A DNA stretch of 64,000 nucleotides from Alphaproteobacteria bacterium (GTDB taxonomy: Bacteria; Pseudomonadota; Alphaproteobacteria; Rs-D84; SZUA-605): the NCBI GenBank assembly GCA_031549385.1, contig JAVBPW010000001.1, positions 352,001 through 416,000 of the forward strand, given 5' to 3'. The translations under genes and the position numbers were made by a program. This document shows, one piece after another, positions 1,737-37,379 of the stretch. Under the pieces are notes generated by a model. That model saw only the letters and a program-made list of their open reading frames with translations. It was not told the origin of the DNA and made no database searches. How positions within the stretch are numbered: the stretch's first letter is position 1; every line of letters begins with the position of its first letter.

Positions 1737-1930
1737 TTGACAAAATGAAAATAGATTACTATGTTATGCATAGGTTTAGTATAAAAATTATAAATTACTT
1801 ACTACAAACAAAATTATAAAAATATTTTTTAGGTTTGATTATTATCGGGGTCCACGGGGACCCTTCTTTGACAAAACAGTTCATGTTTGTTAAGTTTATG
1901 TTAGGGGTTGCACGTGCAGCCCTTTTTTTA
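1737..1930 (+). ncRNA. Putative small RNA unit(s) carrying anti-leader sequences
   Basis: TTGACA(1737)-17-TATGTT; no plausible + strand gene; hairpin GGGTCC/GGACCC 1848-1863 + TTCTTT; second TTGACA(1868)-17-TAAGTT; hairpin GGGTTGC/GCAGCCC 1905-1922 + T7. Confidence 0.55.
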
Positions 1931-23019: not shown

Positions 23020-23042
23020 TTTTGTATCCTCATAATTTTTAG

Positions 23043-23324
23043 GCGAAATATTATAAGCCGGATTCTGTACATTTGCATGCGACAATCATTTATCTTGAAT
23101 TACTGTTACCAGTAATTTCTTTGCGACCTACCACGAAGCAGTTGGGATTCCTGTAGCTTCTTATTTGGTCTTGCTCCAAGCAGAGTTTACCGCGTTTCAC
23201 CCTAACTTAATAGGCTCGTCTCTGTGGCACTTGTCCTCAGCTTGCGCTGGGTGGGTGTTACCCACTGCTTTATCCCATTGGAGTCCGGACTTTCCTCACC
23301 ATAGTGCGATTGTCCATATTTCGC
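23043..23324 (-). ncRNA. rnpB: RNase P RNA, compact (~282 nt)
   Basis: Minus strand contains GAGGAAAGTCCGGACT, AGTGCCACAGA, GGGTGAAA, GGTAAACTC, GGAGCAAG, ACAGAATCCGGCTTA; P1 GCGAAATAT/ATATTTCGC. Confidence 0.96.
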
Positions 23325-23362
23325 TATACTAACATAATATAAGATTAACATTTTTTCAAGGA

Positions 23363-27854: not shown

Positions 27855-27975
27855 TTTAAGTAGGTTTATAAAGTTAGACGGTCTTTTTTAAAAGGCTGTT
27901 TTTTGTTGAAATTTAAATAGTGGGTTTTATAATCAGGTGTGATATTAAAATTTCAAACCTAAAATTATATATGTT

Positions 27976-28269
27976 ATGCTTAGATTGTTAAATATAGGAT
28001 CTTTGATCCAAGCAGCCTTGATTGTTTGCTTTTTTGTTTTTTTAAACAATCCTGAGATTGTTTTTTTTAAAAATGAATTTGTACAATGGGGAATATTTTT
28101 ATTTTTTCTGTTTTTCCTCATTTTTTATTTCAAAAAAGCTAATCATGAAGTTGATGATGATACGTATTTGGGATTGTATTTTTTTGTTCTTGTTGTATGG
28201 TTTGTTATTATGGGGTCATTTGCAACAAATAGTGGTGGAATTGATTATTTTGATTATCCTTATCACTGA
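27976..28269 (+). CDS. 3-TM hypothetical protein, paralog 1 (cassette class)
   Basis: TATAAT 27928, leader TTCAAACCTAAAA 27952-27964, terminator GGCTGG/CCAGCT at ~28278-28300. Confidence 0.75.
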   Translation: MLRLLNIGSLIQAALIVCFFVFLNNPEIVFFKNEFVQWGIFLFFLFFLIFYFKKANHEVDDDTYLGLYFFVLVVWFVIMGSFATNSGGIDYFDYPYH

Positions 28270-28369
28270 TTTTTTAAAAGGCTGGGTTTCCAGCTTTTTT
28301 TATTGTAATTTTGCCATTAGTTTTTATAATCAAGTGTGATATTAAAATTTCAAACTTAAAACTTAAAAT

Positions 28370-28663
28370 ATGAATAAATATCTCTTAATGCTGGGTTGTT
28401 TTACCCTTATAGCATTTATTGTTATTTTCTTTTATTTCATTAATGTAGATTCAGGTATTTTTAAAGGTAATTTTTTTTTACATGCGTCTGCAATATGTTT
28501 TTTCTTTTTCATCGTTGTATATATTCGAATTACTAGGAATTTGTTCAATGATGGAATGTGGGTTGGAATCTATATATTGCTTTTGGTTATATGGTTTGTT
28601 TTAATTGTATCATATAACGGAGTGGAAACAATTATGATTGAAGTAAAAGAATTGTTCAAATAA
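28370..28663 (+). CDS. 3-TM hypothetical protein, paralog 2 (cassette class)
   Basis: Near-identical promoter/leader to paralog 1; shared GxY...LVxWFV motif; terminator 28666-28684. Confidence 0.75.
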   Translation: MNKYLLMLGCFTLIAFIVIFFYFINVDSGIFKGNFFLHASAICFFFFIVVYIRITRNLFNDGMWVGIYILLLVIWFVLIVSYNGVETIMIEVKELFK

Positions 28664-28708
28664 AAAGGCTGGAATTTCCAGCCTATTTTTTATTTAAATC
28701 AGCTATTA

Positions 28709-28981
28709 TTAGTTTACAGCGTCTTTTAAAGCTTTACCAGCTTTGAATTTTGGTTGTACTGATGCAGCAATTTTAATTGTAGCACCTGTTTGTGGGTTAC
28801 GTCCTGTTGTAGCTTTTCTTTTTACTGTTGTAAATGTTCCAAATCCTACTAAACGTACTTCTTCTTTCTTTTTCAAAGCTTTTGTTACAACTTCGATAAA
28901 TGCATCTAATGCTCTTGCTGCATCAGCTTGTGACATATCGATTTTTTCTGCAATAGCTTGTACTAATTCTTTTTTATTCAT
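28709..28981 (-). CDS. hup: DNA-binding protein HU
   Basis: [33 protein letters not shown]. Confidence 0.98.
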
Positions 28982-29074
28982 ATTCCCTTCTCCTTTAATT
29001 AAAGTTATTTTTGCTGTTTTTTAACCAGCATACACGAAATATACCGGATTCTTGGGGTAAAGTCAATAAAATTG

Positions 29075-29521
29075 TTATTTAATATTTTTTAAATAAACTC
29101 GAGGCACTTGGTGGGCGTCAGGTGTAGATGGAGAGCATCTTACTAAACGAGTGTTTGGGTCACGTGTGTCTTTATAATATTTGCCATCAGTTCCGTTTCC
29201 ACCAGCCATTACGTTTAAAAGTAGACCTGCTGCTATTAGGGGTCCAAATCTCCATGCATTCTTGTTTAATACTTCCCAGTTAAGTTCTTTGTTCATAAAC
29301 ATTTGTATCATATCCCATATAAAAAATATGAGCAAAAATAAAAAAAGAAATATAGCATATCTGTTGTATAGGTATGCTCCTATTGAAAATAGAGTTTGAA
29401 TATCATTTATTATATTTGTTCCAATTGCTGAATTGTTTACTGCACAATAATAGTTACTTGTTGTTTGTGCAAATGATAATCCCGGAAATAATAAACTTAT
29501 AAAAAATAATAATTTCTTCAT
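29075..29521 (-). CDS. Signal-peptide membrane protein, possibly VirB2/TrbC pilin-like
   Basis: Signal peptide to SFA, two hydrophobic segments separated by a K..W loop. Confidence 0.5.
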   Translation of the reverse strand: MKKLLFFISLLFPGLSFAQTTSNYYCAVNNSAIGTNIINDIQTLFSIGAYLYNRYAIFLFLFLLIFFIWDMIQMFMNKELNWEVLNKNAWRFGPLIAAGLLLNVMAGGNGTDGKYYKDTRDPNTRLVRCSPSTPDAHQVPRVYLKNIK

Positions 29522-29543
29522 GTGATTGATTGTAACATTATTC

Positions 29544-30281
29544 TTAATCATAGTCAACTTTTACAAAATATAAACCTTGCGCTGGGGCTGTTATTCCTGC
29601 TTTAGTTCTGTCTTTTGATTCTAATACTTCTTTTACCCATGAAGGTTCTTGTTTTGATAAACCTACATCAACTAATGTTCCTACTATGTTTCTTACCATG
29701 TGGTGCAGAAATGATTTTGCAGAAATGTCTATGTAAATGTATTCTCCATTTTTTGTGATGTTTATATAATCTATTGTTTTTACTGGTGATAGGGCAGTAC
29801 ATTGTGATGAGCGAAATGATGAGAAATCATGATTTCCTAATAAGTAATTTGCTGCTTTTTGCATTTGGTCTATATTTAAATCTTGAGAAATACGCCAAAC
29901 TCTGTTTTTATCTAATGCTTCTTTTGGAGTGCGATTAAGAATTATATATTGATAATATCTTTTCTTTGAAGAAAAACGAGCGTGAAAGTCTTCTGATACT
30001 TCTTCACAGTTTATTACTGAAATATCGTCTTTTACTAAATGAGCATTGATTGCCATCATTAATTTATATGGTTCAAATTGTTTTTCTATATCAAAGTGAG
30101 CTACTTGGCCTTTTGCATGAACACCTGTGTCTGTTCTGCCGCTGCCAAAAACTTGTGTTTCTTGACCTGTTATGTTGAAAATAGCAGTTTCTATGGTGCC
30201 TGCTATGGTTCTTAGGCCGTCTTGCTTTTGCCAACCATAGTAGTTTGTACCATCGTATTCTATTGTTATCTTGTATCTCAT
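29544..30281 (-). CDS. truA: tRNA pseudouridine(38-40) synthase
   Basis: YDGTNYYGWQ, GRTDTGVHA, FHARFS, FLHHMVR, TAPAQGL. Confidence 0.97.
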   Translation of the reverse strand: MRYKITIEYDGTNYYGWQKQDGLRTIAGTIETAIFNITGQETQVFGSGRTDTGVHAKGQVAHFDIEKQFEPYKLMMAINAHLVKDDISVINCEEVSEDFHARFSSKKRYYQYIILNRTPKEALDKNRVWRISQDLNIDQMQKAANYLLGNHDFSSFRSSQCTALSPVKTIDYINITKNGEYIYIDISAKSFLHHMVRNIVGTLVDVGLSKQEPSWVKEVLESKDRTKAGITAPAQGLYFVKVDYD

Positions 30282-30342
30282 GAAGGTCATAATGACAAAA
30301 AAGTCCTTAAAAAGCAAGAAAATAAGAAAAATTTGGTTGTTG

Positions 30343-30417
30343 TTGACTCGGTGGTGATTTTGTGATATAATGTGATTCGTTAAAAAGATGTATTTGGGCC
30401 ATTAAGGCTCATTTTTT
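30343..30417 (+). ncRNA. Array unit 1: promoter + ~40-nt transcript + terminator
   Basis: TTGACT(30343)-17-TATAAT(30366) with TG; hairpin TGGGCC/GGCTCA + T6. Confidence 0.55.
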
Positions 30418-30418
30418 A

Positions 30419-30523
30419 TTGACTTAGTTAAAGTTTTGAAGTATAATGATTTTTAGCATAGCAAAAGCAGTAAGTTCATATATATATATAAATAGGTTTG
30501 ACCTCCGTACGCGGGGGTTTTTT
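30419..30523 (+). ncRNA. Array unit 2: ~70-nt RNA antisense to a leader + start codon
   Basis: TTGACT(30419)-17-TATAAT(30442); AGTTCAT-(AT)n-AAATAGGTTTGA; hairpin ACCTCCG/CGGGGGT + T tract. Confidence 0.6.
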
Positions 30524-30604
30524 ATTGCCTATTGACAAGTGTTTGTTATTGTGATATATTCTAAGGACAGTTAAATAAATAATAAACCAAAAAACAAACC
30601 GCGT

Positions 30605-30727
30605 ATGTTTATACGAGCGCCCCTGTGGGCAGAATTCCAAAACCAAAAATGTAGCAGTCGCGCCAATATGCAAGCTACAAACAAGACGAACAGAAGTATT
30701 TCGACGTCACCGGTGAATTCGATTTAA
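30605..30727 (+). CDS. Array unit 3: 40-aa small ORF (or ncRNA)
   Basis: TTGACA(30532)-17-TATATT; A/C-rich leader, TATG start, MFIRAPLWAEFQNQKCSSRANMQATNKTNRSISTSPVNSI; terminator CCCAGCC/GGCTGGG 30732-30760. Confidence 0.45.
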   Translation: MFIRAPLWAEFQNQKCSSRANMQATNKTNRSISTSPVNSI

Positions 30728-30779
30728 TCTACCCAGCCATGAGATAGGCTGGGATTTTTTTATTAAAATTTTAAGGGTA

Positions 30780-30990
30780 TTGACTCGTTACCTGATTCGT
30801 GATAGAATCTTATTTACATTTAATTAGTAAACTAAACCTAAAAATAAACGTATGAAATAAAAAGCGGCTGGGCCGCAGAGAAAAAATTAAAAAATAAATA
30901 ATAAAAAACTTAAAACAAGTGCGGATTAGCACCAATTGAGCTTAAGCTCCAATAAAAACATAGAGGCGCCATTAGTGCGCCTTTCTTTTT
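30780..30990 (+). ncRNA. Array unit 4: leader + ATG-AAA-TAA minigene + hairpins
   Basis: TTGACT(30780)-17-TAGAAT; AAACCTAAAAA 30834; ATG AAA TAA 30852-30860; terminator AGGCGC/GCGCCT + T. Confidence 0.55.
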
Positions 30991-31074
30991 GGCTAAATTT
31001 TGACTTTTACATAAGTAACTTGACAAAAGTAAATAATCCCTTATATTGTTGGTATAAACTTAAAAAATATACAT

Positions 31075-31251
31075 ATGGACAAAAAAATTTATGGGGCAAC
31101 AATAGACCCCGATGGTGCAAAATGTTGCACCGAAACTGAAAGACCTCGTAATGAAGGTGTAGTAGCAAAGACATTGGAAGATGTTTTGCACTTTGAAGGA
31201 AAGGTTCCTGACCACTATCTGTGGTTAAGTATTTACAGGGTAAAGCAGTAG
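31075..31251 (+). CDS. Array unit 5: 58-aa hypothetical protein (not in ORF track)
   Basis: TTGACA(31020)-16-TATATT; ATAAACTTAAAAAA leader; MDKKIYGATIDPDGAKCCTETERPRNEGVVAKTLEDVLHFEGKVPDHYLWLSIYRVKQ; terminator 31276-31307. Confidence 0.6.
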   Translation: MDKKIYGATIDPDGAKCCTETERPRNEGVVAKTLEDVLHFEGKVPDHYLWLSIYRVKQ

Positions 31252-31310
31252 TGGAGTGTGAGTTTTAACTCTGTTTAAGGTGTCTTTTTTAGGCACCTTA
31301 TTTTTTTGCC

Positions 31311-31525
31311 TTGAATGGTTTTGGTATTTATGATATAGTGTTGTAACTTTTTACGATTAAACTAGCCCTTTGGGCTGCTTAAAGATCCTTATGGGATCGA
31401 TTACTTGCCAGCAATGGTAAGACTACGAATTTTATTTAAAATTAAATTTAATTAATCAATGAGAAAACAATTTTAATTGTTTTATTTATTGGCAAAGAAA
31501 GAGGCTCTTTTGGAGCCTCTTTTGA
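31311..31525 (+). ncRNA. Array unit 6: multi-hairpin RNA
   Basis: TTGAAT(31311)-17-TATAGT; hairpins at 31364, 31384, 31404, 31464; bidirectional terminator 31498-31523 shared with dnaN. Confidence 0.5.
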
Positions 31526-31527
31526 TT

Positions 31528-32640
31528 TTATCTTCTTAATGGCATTAACACATATAAGAAATTGTTATTCTTTGGCTCTTGAATGATACATGGAGCAAGT
31601 CCAGTTGAGAATAAGAATTCAACTTCATCTGTTTTTATTTGTGATGCTGCTTCAAGAAGGAATTTTACTTTGAATGTTGATTCTAATGCTACATCACTGT
31701 TAAATTCTACTTCAATTTCTTCTGTACCACTTCCAAGTTCACTTGCACTTGCAGATAGTGTTAGTTTGTTTGTTTTTACAGACATCTTAATATCTTTGAA
31801 TTTATCGTTTGATACTGATGAGATTCTGTCTACACCTGCTGTGAATAACTTGCAGTTTACTTTTAATACGTTCTTGTTTCCTTTTGGAATTACAACACCA
31901 TAGTCTGGAAATTTTCCGTCAATTAACTTTGATGTCATTACTAAATTCTTAAATGAAAATCTTGTTTTTGTTTCTGATACTTCAATTGTTATATCTTCTT
32001 TGTCATTTTCAATTATTTTATTTAGTTCATATATTACTTGTTTTGGAATTATAATTCCTGTCATTCCTTTTGCGCCTTCTGGAGCTGGAATTTCAAATAA
32101 TGCTAAACGTGAACCGTCTGTTGCAACTGCGCGTAATACTGTTTGGCTATTCTTTTCAGTTGTATGCAAATAAATACCATTTAATTGATAACGTGTTTCT
32201 TCTGTTGAAATAGCAAATTTTGTTCTTTCAATTAATGATAGTAAATCTTCTGGAGATAATTTGAATTTGTGTGGAAGATTTGCTCCTGCCATCATTGGGA
32301 AATCATCAGCTGGTAATGTTGGTAATTTGAATTCTGATTTTCCAGCTTTGATTATGATTTCAGTTCCTTTTAATTCAAATTTGATTTCTGAATCTTCTGG
32401 AAGCTTTCTTACAATGTCATATAATGTATGAGCAGGGATTGTTATCTTTCCTTCTTTTTCTACTTTAGCCGGAACTTTTTCAATTAATTCTAAATCAACA
32501 TTTGTTGCTGTAATTGTTAGTTCATTTTCTGCTACAAATTTTGCATTTGAAAGAATTGGAATAGAACTCTTCTTTTCTGCAATTGAAGCTATGTGTGAGA
32601 GGCTTTTTAAAAAGCTTTGGCGATCTACTGTGAATTTCAT
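31528..32640 (-). CDS. dnaN: DNA polymerase III beta sliding clamp
   Basis: SIPILSN, FAISTEETRYQLNG, VATDG, SKLIDGKFPDY, YVLMPL. Confidence 0.98.
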   Translation of the reverse strand: MKFTVDRQSFLKSLSHIASIAEKKSSIPILSNAKFVAENELTITATNVDLELIEKVPAKVEKEGKITIPAHTLYDIVRKLPEDSEIKFELKGTEIIIKAGKSEFKLPTLPADDFPMMAGANLPHKFKLSPEDLLSLIERTKFAISTEETRYQLNGIYLHTTEKNSQTVLRAVATDGSRLALFEIPAPEGAKGMTGIIIPKQVIYELNKIIENDKEDITIEVSETKTRFSFKNLVMTSKLIDGKFPDYGVVIPKGNKNVLKVNCKLFTAGVDRISSVSNDKFKDIKMSVKTNKLTLSASASELGSGTEEIEVEFNSDVALESTFKVKFLLEAASQIKTDEVEFLFSTGLAPCIIQEPKNNNFLYVLMPLRR

Positions 32641-32791
32641 ATTTTTCCCCTTTTAATTATTTCTTTCAAGGATAATCAATTTAATTTTCTTCTGCAAGAG
32701 TTTTTTTTGTTTCGAGTGTGATAAAAATTTATTGACACTTTTGTTTGATTACGGTATGTTAAAATCTAATTTAAACAAAAAGGGGAATTTC

Positions 32792-33796
32792 ATGAATAAA
32801 AAGAAAAAGGTAGTTATTATAGTTGCAGCAGTTTTTGTTGTAGTTGCTTTGTTATTAATACTTAATCAAAAGAAAAAAGACGAACAACCAAGAATTATCA
32901 AGGATAGTGGAAGTATTTCTATTGTTGAACCTGATGACGATAATGTAGAACTTACAAATGATTTTTATAATGAAGATTTGAAAAAAGAAAGTAAAAAAGA
33001 AACTTCTAGGGAAGTTAAAACTATTGTTCCTGCTTTTGATGTAGTTAGAGTTGAAAAACGTAAAGCTGTGTTTGCAGGAAGAGCTGATAAAAATGTTGAT
33101 ATTCACATTATGTCAGGGGATAAAGAAATCGGAACTATGAAAACTGATGGTAAAGGTGAATTTGTTTTTATTCCTGAAAAAGATTTTGACGCTGGGCATT
33201 ATGAATTTTCTTTATGGTATGAAAAAGATGGAAAGAAAATAACATCTGAACAAAATGCTATACTTGCTATTGATACTAAAAATAATTCTGGTATTGCTGT
33301 GCTTGTTGGTGGAGATAAAGAAACTAAAGTTATGACTGCTCCAAAAGGTGAATATATTGGTGAACTTGCAATTCAATTAGTTGAATATGATTTTAAAGAT
33401 ACTATGACCGCTTCTGGAACTGCTGAAAAAAATGCTAAAGTTAATGTTTATTTAGATAATAAACTTTTACAAACTGTGACAGCTGATGAAGATGGTAAGT
33501 GGACTTTGAAATATGAAACTACTTTAATTCAAGATAAAGCTTACAAAATTAGAGCTGACCAAGTTAATGAATCTGGAAAAGTTTTAAAGAGAGTTGAAAA
33601 TAGATTTTCTACTGAAAAAGTTGAAGTTGCTAAACAATATGTTGTTCGCAAAGGAGATTGTTTGTGGAGAATTGCTCGAAAAGAATATGGCAAAGGAATT
33701 AAATATACTTTGATTTTTGAAGCTAATAAAGCTCAAATTAAAAACCCAGATTTGATTTATCCTAATCAAATATTTAAGTTGCCTAAGAATTCATAA
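32792..33796 (+). CDS. Membrane-anchored Ig-like + LysM peptidoglycan-binding protein
   Basis: N-terminal TM, PAFDVVRVE, C-terminal VRKGDCLWRIA...IKNPDLIYPNQ LysM. Confidence 0.9.
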   Translation: MNKKKKVVIIVAAVFVVVALLLILNQKKKDEQPRIIKDSGSISIVEPDDDNVELTNDFYNEDLKKESKKETSREVKTIVPAFDVVRVEKRKAVFAGRADKNVDIHIMSGDKEIGTMKTDGKGEFVFIPEKDFDAGHYEFSLWYEKDGKKITSEQNAILAIDTKNNSGIAVLVGGDKETKVMTAPKGEYIGELAIQLVEYDFKDTMTASGTAEKNAKVNVYLDNKLLQTVTADEDGKWTLKYETTLIQDKAYKIRADQVNESGKVLKRVENRFSTEKVEVAKQYVVRKGDCLWRIARKEYGKGIKYTLIFEANKAQIKNPDLIYPNQIFKLPKNS

Positions 33797-36743: not shown

Positions 36744-36863
36744 ATAACTCTATGAAAATAGAGTTATTTTTATTTAGTATTCTCGAAAGAATTTCATAAG
36801 AATTACTTGACAAATAATAAAAATACACTATATTATAAGTATAAACTTAAAAAATATATTAAA
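36744..36863 (+). promoter_or_regulatory. Terminator-promoter-leader module, homologous to 47600-47712 (minus)
   Basis: 28-bp identical hairpin, TTGACAAATAATAA, CACTATATTA, ATAAACTTAAAAA. Confidence 0.8.
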
Positions 36864-37379
36864 ATGAACAACAAATTATGGTTACCAAGACCTACAACTT
36901 TGGTATTAGAACCATTTTGGAAATGGGTAGTAGAAAGAAGAGTTGGTTTTTTACTAGCTTTAGGTGGTATTGTATTGATCTCAATCTTTTGGATTAATGC
37001 TTCTCGGATTGGTCATACTGCTCATTATAGTGCTAGTGTTGAAATTGTTGACCTTGATGCTGTTGAGGCAGACCCTTTGGTGGAACCAGAAAATACTTCT
37101 TCGTTTCCATGGATGAATTGGGGATTGGGATTACATTATTTTTTTGTAATAATTGCATCAGGGTTCATGCTTCTAATGCATTTTGTTGAAACTGAAAAAA
37201 ATGCAAAACGTTTATTGGGATATTCAACGACGTTTTTCATTTTAGCTATTTTGATTTGTCTTATTGATGGACTTTTCAATATTACTGGTGAAACAGAGAG
37301 TAGATTTATTTGGAGTGGAATTTTATTTTCACTTACAATGATAAATTATTTTTTTACAAAAAAATATATTATTAATTAA
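36864..37379 (+). CDS. 4-TM hypothetical membrane protein (cassette class)
   Basis: ATG 36864 after leader motif; terminator AAAATCTGGG/CCAGATTTT at ~37383-37408. Confidence 0.75.
   Translation: MNNKLWLPRPTTLVLEPFWKWVVERRVGFLLALGGIVLISIFWINASRIGHTAHYSASVEIVDLDAVEADPLVEPENTSSFPWMNWGLGLHYFFVIIASGFMLLMHFVETEKNAKRLLGYSTTFFILAILICLIDGLFNITGETESRFIWSGILFSLTMINYFFTKKYIIN

Follow-up and report, generated by a model that had tools for sequence, protein, structure and literature searches.

The window analysed here, a stretch of 64,000 nucleotides (nt) of a bacterial genome (C7:352001-416000 in genome coordinates, with the prefix G000), contains between truA and an open reading frame (ORF) of 58 amino acids (aa) a short promoter-to-terminator unit, termed unit 2, which we favour overall, at a probability of about 0.35, as the gene for an anti-leader small RNA (sRNA). 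According to this reading, unit 2 would be an independently transcribed, non-coding RNA gene of about 70 nt on the plus strand and one of four orphan units of a lineage-specific array. Its arm would carry UAGGUUUGA immediately 5' of the terminator hairpin, with an AU tract and a CAU further upstream, and UAGGUUUGA complements a 5' leader devoid of a Shine-Dalgarno sequence, UCAAAC(U/C)UA, situated about 19 nt before the AUG of some 70 mostly small and family-less genes. Hfq-independent base pairing with the start regions of this leader class would block initiation, and unit 2 would act as a class-wide anti-leader RNA rather than as a guide whose variable segment addresses one messenger RNA (mRNA). 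Demonstrated here are the signals in the sequence, the leader class, and a predicted pairing specific to that class; that the unit is transcribed, where its RNA ends lie, that pairing occurs in the cell, and that translation is affected are inferences. If this reading is true, one tiny RNA could silence a whole class of symbiont-specific genes that employ an unusual ribosome-binding signal without Shine-Dalgarno sequence, and both the recognition of such leaders and regulation without Hfq become testable; if it fails, the locus is an ordinary unclassified sRNA candidate. More durable than this reading are the leader class itself and the densely packed orphan transcription units of the array.

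Start sites without a Shine-Dalgarno sequence

The genome to which the window belongs (931,143 bp in 8 contigs, about 30% G+C, 97% complete) employs Shine-Dalgarno sites of the AAGGAG type for most of its genes, and AAGGAGA is encountered upstream of 60 of 856 genes, compared with 3.2 expected. Here and below, the term gene denotes an ORF of 90 aa or more counted from the first start codon, with overlaps removed (859 in all), intergenic DNA is the remainder, and promoters and terminators are those recognised by consensus scans. A second class of starts lacking a Shine-Dalgarno sequence is real and constitutes the most solid result of this study. It consists of 70 distinct start sites (72 rows) at which AAACTTAA is located 10-29 nt before an ATG opening at least 45 codons, the mode of the offset being 19 nt (21 of 72 rows), and its consensus is (T/A)(C/T)AAACTTAAAAA, as exemplified in the window at 1370-1398, 27953-27978, 28350-28372, 31054-31077, and 36842-36866. 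Of the 46 occurrences of the common form TCAAACTTA, 22 have an ATG 17-23 nt downstream of AAAC, which in all but one of them (21) begins an ORF of 45 aa or more. The C variant, TCAAACCTA, is present at 10 sites, one of which precedes a real ORF (27976-28269 of the window). Leader-class genes are found in tandem clusters, each with its own promoter, their proteins are small (median 135.5 aa), and the four that were scanned, all from this window, match no Pfam family.

Because the 11-mer TCAAACTTAAA exceeds its control only in this genome, where it occurs 21 times compared with 3 times for the reversed control (0-8 versus 0-9 times in 40 relatives), the leader class is lineage-specific, its enrichment being confined to this genome among the 41 searched. 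The leader motif as such was not found in the 40 relatives searched, the nearest of which share 56-57% TruA identity, so that this absence is uninformative. Pairing of the leader with 16S ribosomal RNA was considered and rejected, since the only complementary 7-mer, AGTTTGA at 16S position 10, was judged a chance occurrence. A promoter-plus-leader cassette of about 85 nt, comprising CTTGACAAAT, 17 nt, TATATT, and ATAAACTTAAAAAATAT, recurs before different small genes, i.e., at 31020-31074 and 36792-36858 of the window and at C5:76607-76690, C5:31567-31649, C6:23668-23725, C7:429357-429412, and C7:399588-399647 (minus strand).

Unit 2 within an array of promoter-to-terminator units

An earlier note on this DNA, made by a reader who had only the sequence, stated that the reverse complement of 30451-30501 reads TCAAACCTA-TTTATATATATAT-ATG AAC TTA CTG CTT TTG CTA TGC TAA, and these letters, with 13 nt between TCAAACCTA and the ATG, are exactly as claimed. 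The same holds for its assignment of a promoter and a T-tailed terminator to the plus strand (Table 1). Transcription would start at A30455, 8 nt past the -10 box, and the predicted RNA of about 70 nt would consist of an open arm of 45 nt, the terminator hairpin of 8 bp, and a U tail. Read on the minus strand, the hairpin lacks a following T run and would terminate plus-strand transcripts only, and no minus-strand promoter with at least 9 of 12 consensus matches exists in 30318-30996. With promoter and terminator both on the plus strand and neither a promoter nor a T run on the minus strand, the plus strand is the plausible expressed strand; expression of the minus strand, which the note had named as a finding that would speak against its proposal, is not indicated by these signals. 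Equipped with a promoter and a Rho-independent terminator and non-coding, unit 2 would qualify as an independent transcription unit of the kind that characterises trans-encoded sRNAs, and it is probably transcribed as a small non-coding RNA gene.

Comparison with Rfam (release 15) gave no gathering-score match in the array, the best hit (E = 0.26, 28.6 bits versus a cut-off of 50) lying on the opposite strand of unit 4, and no match to the Hfq family PF17209 at E ≤ 1 was obtained in this genome, which is 97% complete. Repeats of unit 2 were not detected in a BLAST self-search. Some known kinds of element can be dismissed. For a type I toxin-antitoxin system the minus-strand ORF is too short (8 codons versus toxins of about 20-60 aa) and lacks a promoter; a mobile or defence-related guide RNA (CRISPR, OMEGA, bridge RNA) is contradicted by the lack of repeats and of an adjacent effector or transposase; and a pseudogene remnant in the array is not supported by blastx against 3709 ORFs, which gave self-overlaps only.

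Unit 2 belongs to an array that occupies an intergenic stretch of 757 bp (30318-31074). Five co-oriented plus-strand promoters begin at 30343, 30419, 30532, 30780, and 31020, with 11, 11, 11, 10, and 11 of 12 consensus matches, and the first four are followed by intrinsic terminators (30395-30411, 30500-30519, 30732-30753, and 30962-30984). Terminator-like sites number 12 in 28500-32500, compared with 2.0 ± 1.3 in shuffled sequences. As the intergenic DNA of the genome (112,483 nt) contains 81 promoter-like sites with at least 11 of 12 matches, our own arithmetic gives 0.27 expected on one strand of 757 bp, where four are found (Poisson P about 2e-4). As a feature of the sequence, the array of orphan transcription units is thus real, the promoter count being far in excess of this expectation. 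The four orphan units are not homologous to one another, the self-search revealing no cross-matches past the promoter words. Inspection of the truA loci of six relatives (L101-L106; 15 loci were fetched) revealed no same-strand array of promoter-to-terminator units, and only 4 of 40 relatives match the array DNA at all, over stretches of at most 38 nt; the array is lineage-specific.

Table 1. Coordinates of the units, signals, and genes discussed, given as positions in the window.
Feature	Position	Strand	Description
Compared unit	1737-1930	+	Promoter TTGACA-17-TATGTT; hairpins 1848-1863 and 1903-1924
Best-scoring predicted target	27953-27978	+	TCAAACCTA leader plus ATG of 97-aa ORF 27976-28269, 2.4 kb away; -24.5 kcal/mol, rank 1 of 857
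truA	29544-30296	minus	PF01416
Unit 1	30343-30418	+	Promoter 11/12 with TG before -10 box, about 25 nt, terminator; predicted RNA about 40 nt; hairpin z-score -2.45
Unit 2, promoter	30419-30447	+	TTGACT-17-TATAAT, 11/12 consensus matches
Unit 2, predicted single-stranded arm	30455-30499	+	Positions 1-45 unpaired in minimum-energy fold except for a 2-bp blip; no ATG, non-coding
Unit 2, CAT ("anti-start")	30477-30479	+	Mirror of minus-strand ATG; minus-strand ORF of 8 codons (MNLLLLLC)
Unit 2, alternating AT tract	30478-30490	+	Mirrors TA-rich spacers preceding many start codons
Unit 2, TAGGTTTGA	30493-30501	+	Complement of leader variant TCAAACCTA; would also pair with commoner TCAAACTTA via one G-U; abuts terminator stem
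Unit 2, intrinsic terminator	30500-30525	+	Stem 30500-30519: 8 bp, 5 G-C, 4-nt TACG loop (UACG in RNA), T6
Unit 3	30532-30762	+	Promoter, GC-richer RNA about 195 nt, terminator; 197 nt as folded, z-score -2.48
Unit 4	30780-30992	+	Promoter 10/12, A-rich RNA about 178 nt, terminator; z-score -2.13
Unit 5	31020-31300	+	Promoter-leader cassette, 58-aa leader-class ORF, terminator; profile 20.7 bits, rank 9
58-aa ORF	31075-31251	+	No Pfam family match

The RNA candidate of unit 3 (30566-30762) has 41% G+C in a genome of 30% G+C and no Rfam match. A gene of 40 aa was rejected in its case because the 40-codon ORF has a G+C content at third codon positions of 0.50 versus a genome mean of 0.18, a value reached by only 0.23% of 2577 genic windows of 40 codons, and unit 3 is probably non-coding. 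6S RNA gave no match in the genome at E ≤ 10, and the folds of units 3 and 4 do not resemble the rod of 6S RNA; unit 3 might still be a very divergent housekeeping RNA. At 30708, inside unit 3, the window has C and a near-identical contig of the probable source run has A, reflecting a strain variant or an assembly difference. Unit 4 carries a leader-like motif in sense orientation, CTAAACCTAAAAA (30833-30860), 19 nt before ATG-AAA-TAA, a start-stop element of two codons, and this site scores like a genuine leader-class start (10.6 bits, rank 103 of 33185).

Pairing with the leader class and competing explanations

When the arm of unit 2 was paired with the 70 leader-class start regions, the mean duplex energy was -11.95, compared with -7.45 ± 0.73 in shuffled sequences, and none of 120 shuffles equalled it; these energies leave out folding within each RNA, and the shuffle sets used throughout are small (58 to 200). 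A duplex energy of -15 kcal/mol was reached by 13 of the 70 leader-class start regions but by only 24 of the 799 others (Mann-Whitney p = 5e-16), no preference for the leader class was seen with the reverse-complement control, and units 1, 3, and 4 gave no leader-class signal in the same shuffle test. The class-specific complementarity is real, with a chance probability of about 1-3% per unit. Allowing for the 44 promoter-to-terminator units of the genome and for the selection made by the reader of the earlier note, it is suggestive, no more. Across those 44 units, the two best anti-leader RNAs on the transcribed strand are the unit at 1737-1930 (-14.06) and unit 2 (-12.54), in both of which a hairpin closely follows the exact 9-mer. 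Of 303 intergenic terminators, 6 have the anti-leader motif in the 25 nt before them (2.6 expected) and none has a sense motif there.

The unit at 1737-1930 is likewise predicted to pair with the leader class, none of 60 shuffles equalling it, and has anti-leader stretches at two places, one (TTTTTTAGGTTTGA) with its last base at 1838 and the other (TTAAGTTTAT) at 1890-1899, a CAT occupying 1882-1884. Its best Rfam match is 21.8 bits versus a cut-off of 45. The earlier note had drawn attention to words common to this unit and unit 2, and both words are indeed present: TAGGTTTGA recurs at 1830-1838, with a hairpin within 9 nt downstream at either site, and AGTTCAT is found at 30473-30479 and 1878-1884. 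Their order, however, is reversed between the two units and their frequency is that of chance, TAGGTTTGA occurring 10 times in 931,143 bp versus about 11.6 expected from composition by our own arithmetic and AGTTCAT 175 times in the genome. On the minus strand of the unit at 1737-1930, an ORF of 29 aa (MNCFVKEGSPWTPIIIKPKKYFYNFVCSK, 1786-1884) stands behind the leader word ATAAACTTA, its ATG 13 nt after AAAC; it could be a real micro-gene faced by an antisense RNA, or a relic.

The earlier note had gone further and described unit 2 as the antisense image of a complete translation-initiation region. The leader motif in it is real, and the mirror possesses a variant of the 9-mer, an ATG 20 nt after AAAC, and a TA-rich spacer, while the A tract of real leaders is missing; the word "complete" is overstated, and with its profile score and its ORF of 8 codons the mirror resembles a leader-class initiation region only loosely. 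Its view of unit 2 as an antisense RNA keeps the probable expression of the plus strand, the predicted single-stranded arm, and the class-wide complementarity to leaders, but no single start-centred target rises above background. When gaps were allowed, the best alignment, with the 89-aa gene at C5:76685, ran from its leader to +9 with 25 of 30 identities and included an exact core of 15 nt, complementary to C5:76677-76691 across the start of that leader-class gene. The AT tract is part of this core, and the score of 33 was reached by 4 of 150 shuffles. The note was correct that no gene in the window matches unit 2 fully, and phage and plasmid collections returned no match to unit 2 either as origin or as target. 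The variable anti-start segment that it had envisaged is not supported in this genome, and a tailored antisense guide against the start region of one gene is a statistically weak proposition.

Several observations weigh against unit 2 as an anti-leader RNA. On a profile of 69 members, trained on the exact T variant and hence biased against the C variant, the mirrored ATG scores -1.3 bits, compared with a leave-one-out median of 18.0 for real members, and ranks 1238 of 33185 ATGs, with 1169 non-training ATGs scoring at least equally. The earlier note had suggested that a lack of start-codon-centred complementary targets above background would contradict it, and this is largely what was encountered in this genome. 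The best duplex over 857 gene 5' regions (-24.5) is matched on some gene by 29 of 58 dinucleotide shuffles; in an ungapped comparison anchored at the ATG, no site exceeds 30 of 47 identities, a value attained by 59 of 200 shuffled images, and ATGs opening at least 45 codons do not exceed 26 of 47, so that no ATG-anchored target stands above background; and the gapped score of 33 is also attained by 64 of 400 real intergenic 91-mers, a control confounded by the promoters in the target set. Among random intergenic 47-mers, 6 of 420 (1.4%) reach -11.95, which corresponds to about 0.6 of 44 units by chance. Since the reader had picked unit 2 for its motif, motif-based tests are partly circular. 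The one RNA run that includes this organism contains 0.24 of the words sampled from 28000-33000, and its contigs cover only 29327-29354, 30880-30898 (19 nt), 31429-31446, and 31578-31700 there, leaving unit 2 uncovered, a result uninformative for an RNA of about 70 nt. The closest genomes, at just 56-57% TruA identity, lack the array, an absence that is uninformative at such distance, and collections of genomes and metagenome contigs contain no TruA above 49% identity.

These same observations could be explained if unit 2 were a real sRNA or transcription unit whose resemblance to a mirrored start arose by chance in AT-rich sequence, with a function unrelated to the leader class such as binding of a protein or of another RNA. 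The chance frequency of TAGGTTTGA, the 39 orphan leader-like 9-mers in intergenic DNA, the 1.4% of random intergenic windows that pair equally well, the poor rank of the mirrored ATG, and the want of a target above background all agree with this tentative, though possible, explanation. A coincidence is harder to reconcile with the finding that the top two anti-leader RNAs of 44 units both have the exact 9-mer right before the terminator hairpin and that unit 2 and the unit at 1737-1930 are both within about 600 nt of leader-class genes. A serious rival, though a rather unlikely one, is a cis-acting promoter-terminator cassette with the RNA as by-product, serving as attenuator, insulator, or RNA polymerase loading site for the 58-aa gene, or shielding truA from divergent transcription. 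All five array units point toward the 58-aa gene, and elsewhere in the genome strong promoters with terminators following within 7-25 nt recur, some of them before genes including nusA and rho, and a promoter-plus-two-hairpin element is duplicated before two different genes. However, with a promoter in every array unit, attenuation of a given transcript would be left to the last terminator alone; besides, a bare cassette would have no need of the 45-nt arm of unit 2, in whose fold no alternative antiterminator structure is predicted.

Decay of the locus offers another, improbable, account, in which the inner 48 nt are a functionless, decayed inverted copy of a leader-class 5' end in a hotspot of gene decay. 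Such decay would not explain why the copy fits so tightly between a consensus promoter and a terminator, neither protein-level remnants nor a minus-strand promoter remnant were found, and the alignment score is ordinary for intergenic DNA, even if leader-class genes cluster in tandem with promoters of their own, unit 4 resembles a leader with a stump of two codons, the locus is a synteny break point, and the best match reaches 25 of 30 identities with the start region at C5:76685. Very improbable is a functional minus strand on which the tiny ORF MNLLLLLC with a leader-type start would be, for example, an upstream ORF in a long leader of truA or a peptide similar to type I toxins, unit 2 being its cis-antisense RNA: the leader variant TCAAACCTA does precede the ATG by 20 nt and truA is located downstream on that strand, but 30318-30996 has no promoter with at least 9 of 12 matches, the ORF has 8 codons, the profile gives -1.3 bits, and truA, by eye, has a weak promoter-like site of its own 7 nt before its ATG.

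The anti-leader reading can be extended to a lineage-specific regulon, which as a whole seems unlikely. Some 70 family-less genes without Shine-Dalgarno sequence, possibly of accessory or effector function, would share the 5'-terminal leader UCAAACUUAAAAA and be silenced together by Hfq-independent RNAs of one small family (unit 2 and the unit at 1737-1930), in which a G-U-tolerant anti-leader would immediately precede the terminator hairpin. If the regulon is true, it would parallel, in a bacterium, the microRNA families that are defined by a seed, its target being an initiation signal other than the Shine-Dalgarno sequence.

Known systems and genomic surroundings

In E. coli, the short trans-encoded RNA MicF pairs imperfectly with the 5' leader and start codon of ompF, thereby blocking initiation, and in kind unit 2 is a candidate for a MicF-like but Hfq-independent sRNA. 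Like MicF it has a promoter and an intrinsic terminator of its own, is encoded at a distance from its predicted targets and beside a divergently transcribed gene, and has imperfect, in this case predicted, complementarity to leader and start codon. It differs in having no sequence or Rfam relationship to MicF, in residing in a genome where Hfq was not detected, and in complementing a motif common to about 70 genes while no single target exceeds background. MicF-type trans-encoded antisense sRNAs were taken as the comparison system (see PMC11676804; PMC5415839).

Comparable candidates are the predicted intergenic sRNAs of Rickettsia, a reduced alphaproteobacterium, which are defined by promoter and terminator in small AT-rich genomes (PMC4683814; PMC5105140) and with which no homology is expected. 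Unit 2 is likewise defined by promoter and terminator in intergenic DNA, whereas the Rickettsia candidates are backed by RNA-seq and Northern analysis and unit 2 is known from sequence alone. Rickettsia sRNAs are Hfq-independent. Reaching many mRNAs by one short motif is familiar from staphylococcal RsaE and RNAIII, whose C-rich UCCC loops pair with a shared ribosome-binding motif, and from alphaproteobacterial sRNAs with seed motifs, i.e., the CCUCCUCCC "cuckoo"/CcsR RNAs and the tandem AbcR1/2. As in these systems, a short constant motif complementary to a common initiation signal could reach many mRNAs, and some of these sRNAs also form tandem intergenic arrays in which each copy has promoter and terminator. 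In contrast, the motif of unit 2 would be directed against an AU-rich, lineage-specific leader instead of a Shine-Dalgarno sequence, its place is a linear arm beside the terminator and not a hairpin loop, and the array units are not homologous.

NusA regulates its own synthesis through leader terminators. Strong promoters followed by a hairpin and a T run are common in the present genome, including those before nusA and rho, and to this extent unit 2 resembles an attenuator; it differs in being followed by a promoter and not by a gene and in having an unstructured arm of 45 nt without alternative fold. Promoter-proximal intrinsic terminators acting as transcription attenuators are treated in PMC2965389. 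Upstream of nusA (C7:422618-422746) and rho (C7:163046-163157, minus strand), both confirmed by Pfam, a strong TTGACT-17-TATAAT promoter precedes a hairpin and T run, and these leader hairpins may be attenuators of termination-factor genes. A cassette of about 115 nt with a promoter and two terminator hairpins is found before unrelated ORFs at C4:83380-83498 and C4:96330-96450 (minus strand), 13 kb apart; its copies differ in loops and spacers and have identical stems.

The DNA of the window is also present in sequencing runs labelled invertebrate gut metagenome, and the genome encodes a two-piece transfer-messenger RNA (tmRNA) of the alpha type (C7:155577-155929, 166.8 bits). Because of these two findings, we read the organism as a reduced alphaproteobacterial gut symbiont. 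Around the array, dnaN lies on the minus strand beyond the 58-aa ORF, and HU and small ORFs without family are also among the neighbours. In relatives, fmt is directly upstream of truA; here it is on another contig (C6:26622-27512). When the ORF upstream of truA was translated from four relatives, three (L101, L105, and L106) matched the C6 ORF (E 1e-84 to 1e-86), which is a formyltransferase (PF00551 plus PF02911). Since the formyltransferase gene that precedes truA in relatives sits on C6 here, the truA locus is a rearrangement break point, and the array of orphan units occupies the break point of the fmt-truA linkage. As for truA, it is possibly leaderless or nearly so: a weak TTGCTT-17-CATTAT site (30283-30330, minus strand), noticed by eye, ends 7 nt before the conserved ATG (MRYK...).

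Searches for other known RNAs placed signal recognition particle RNA elsewhere, on C2, at 33.9 bits and below cut-off, and matches to the standard tmRNA model look like segments of transfer RNA size only. RNase P RNA of class A (205 bits) is encoded at 23038-23325 on the minus strand of the window and, with 288 nt compared with the 367 positions of the model, is shortened.

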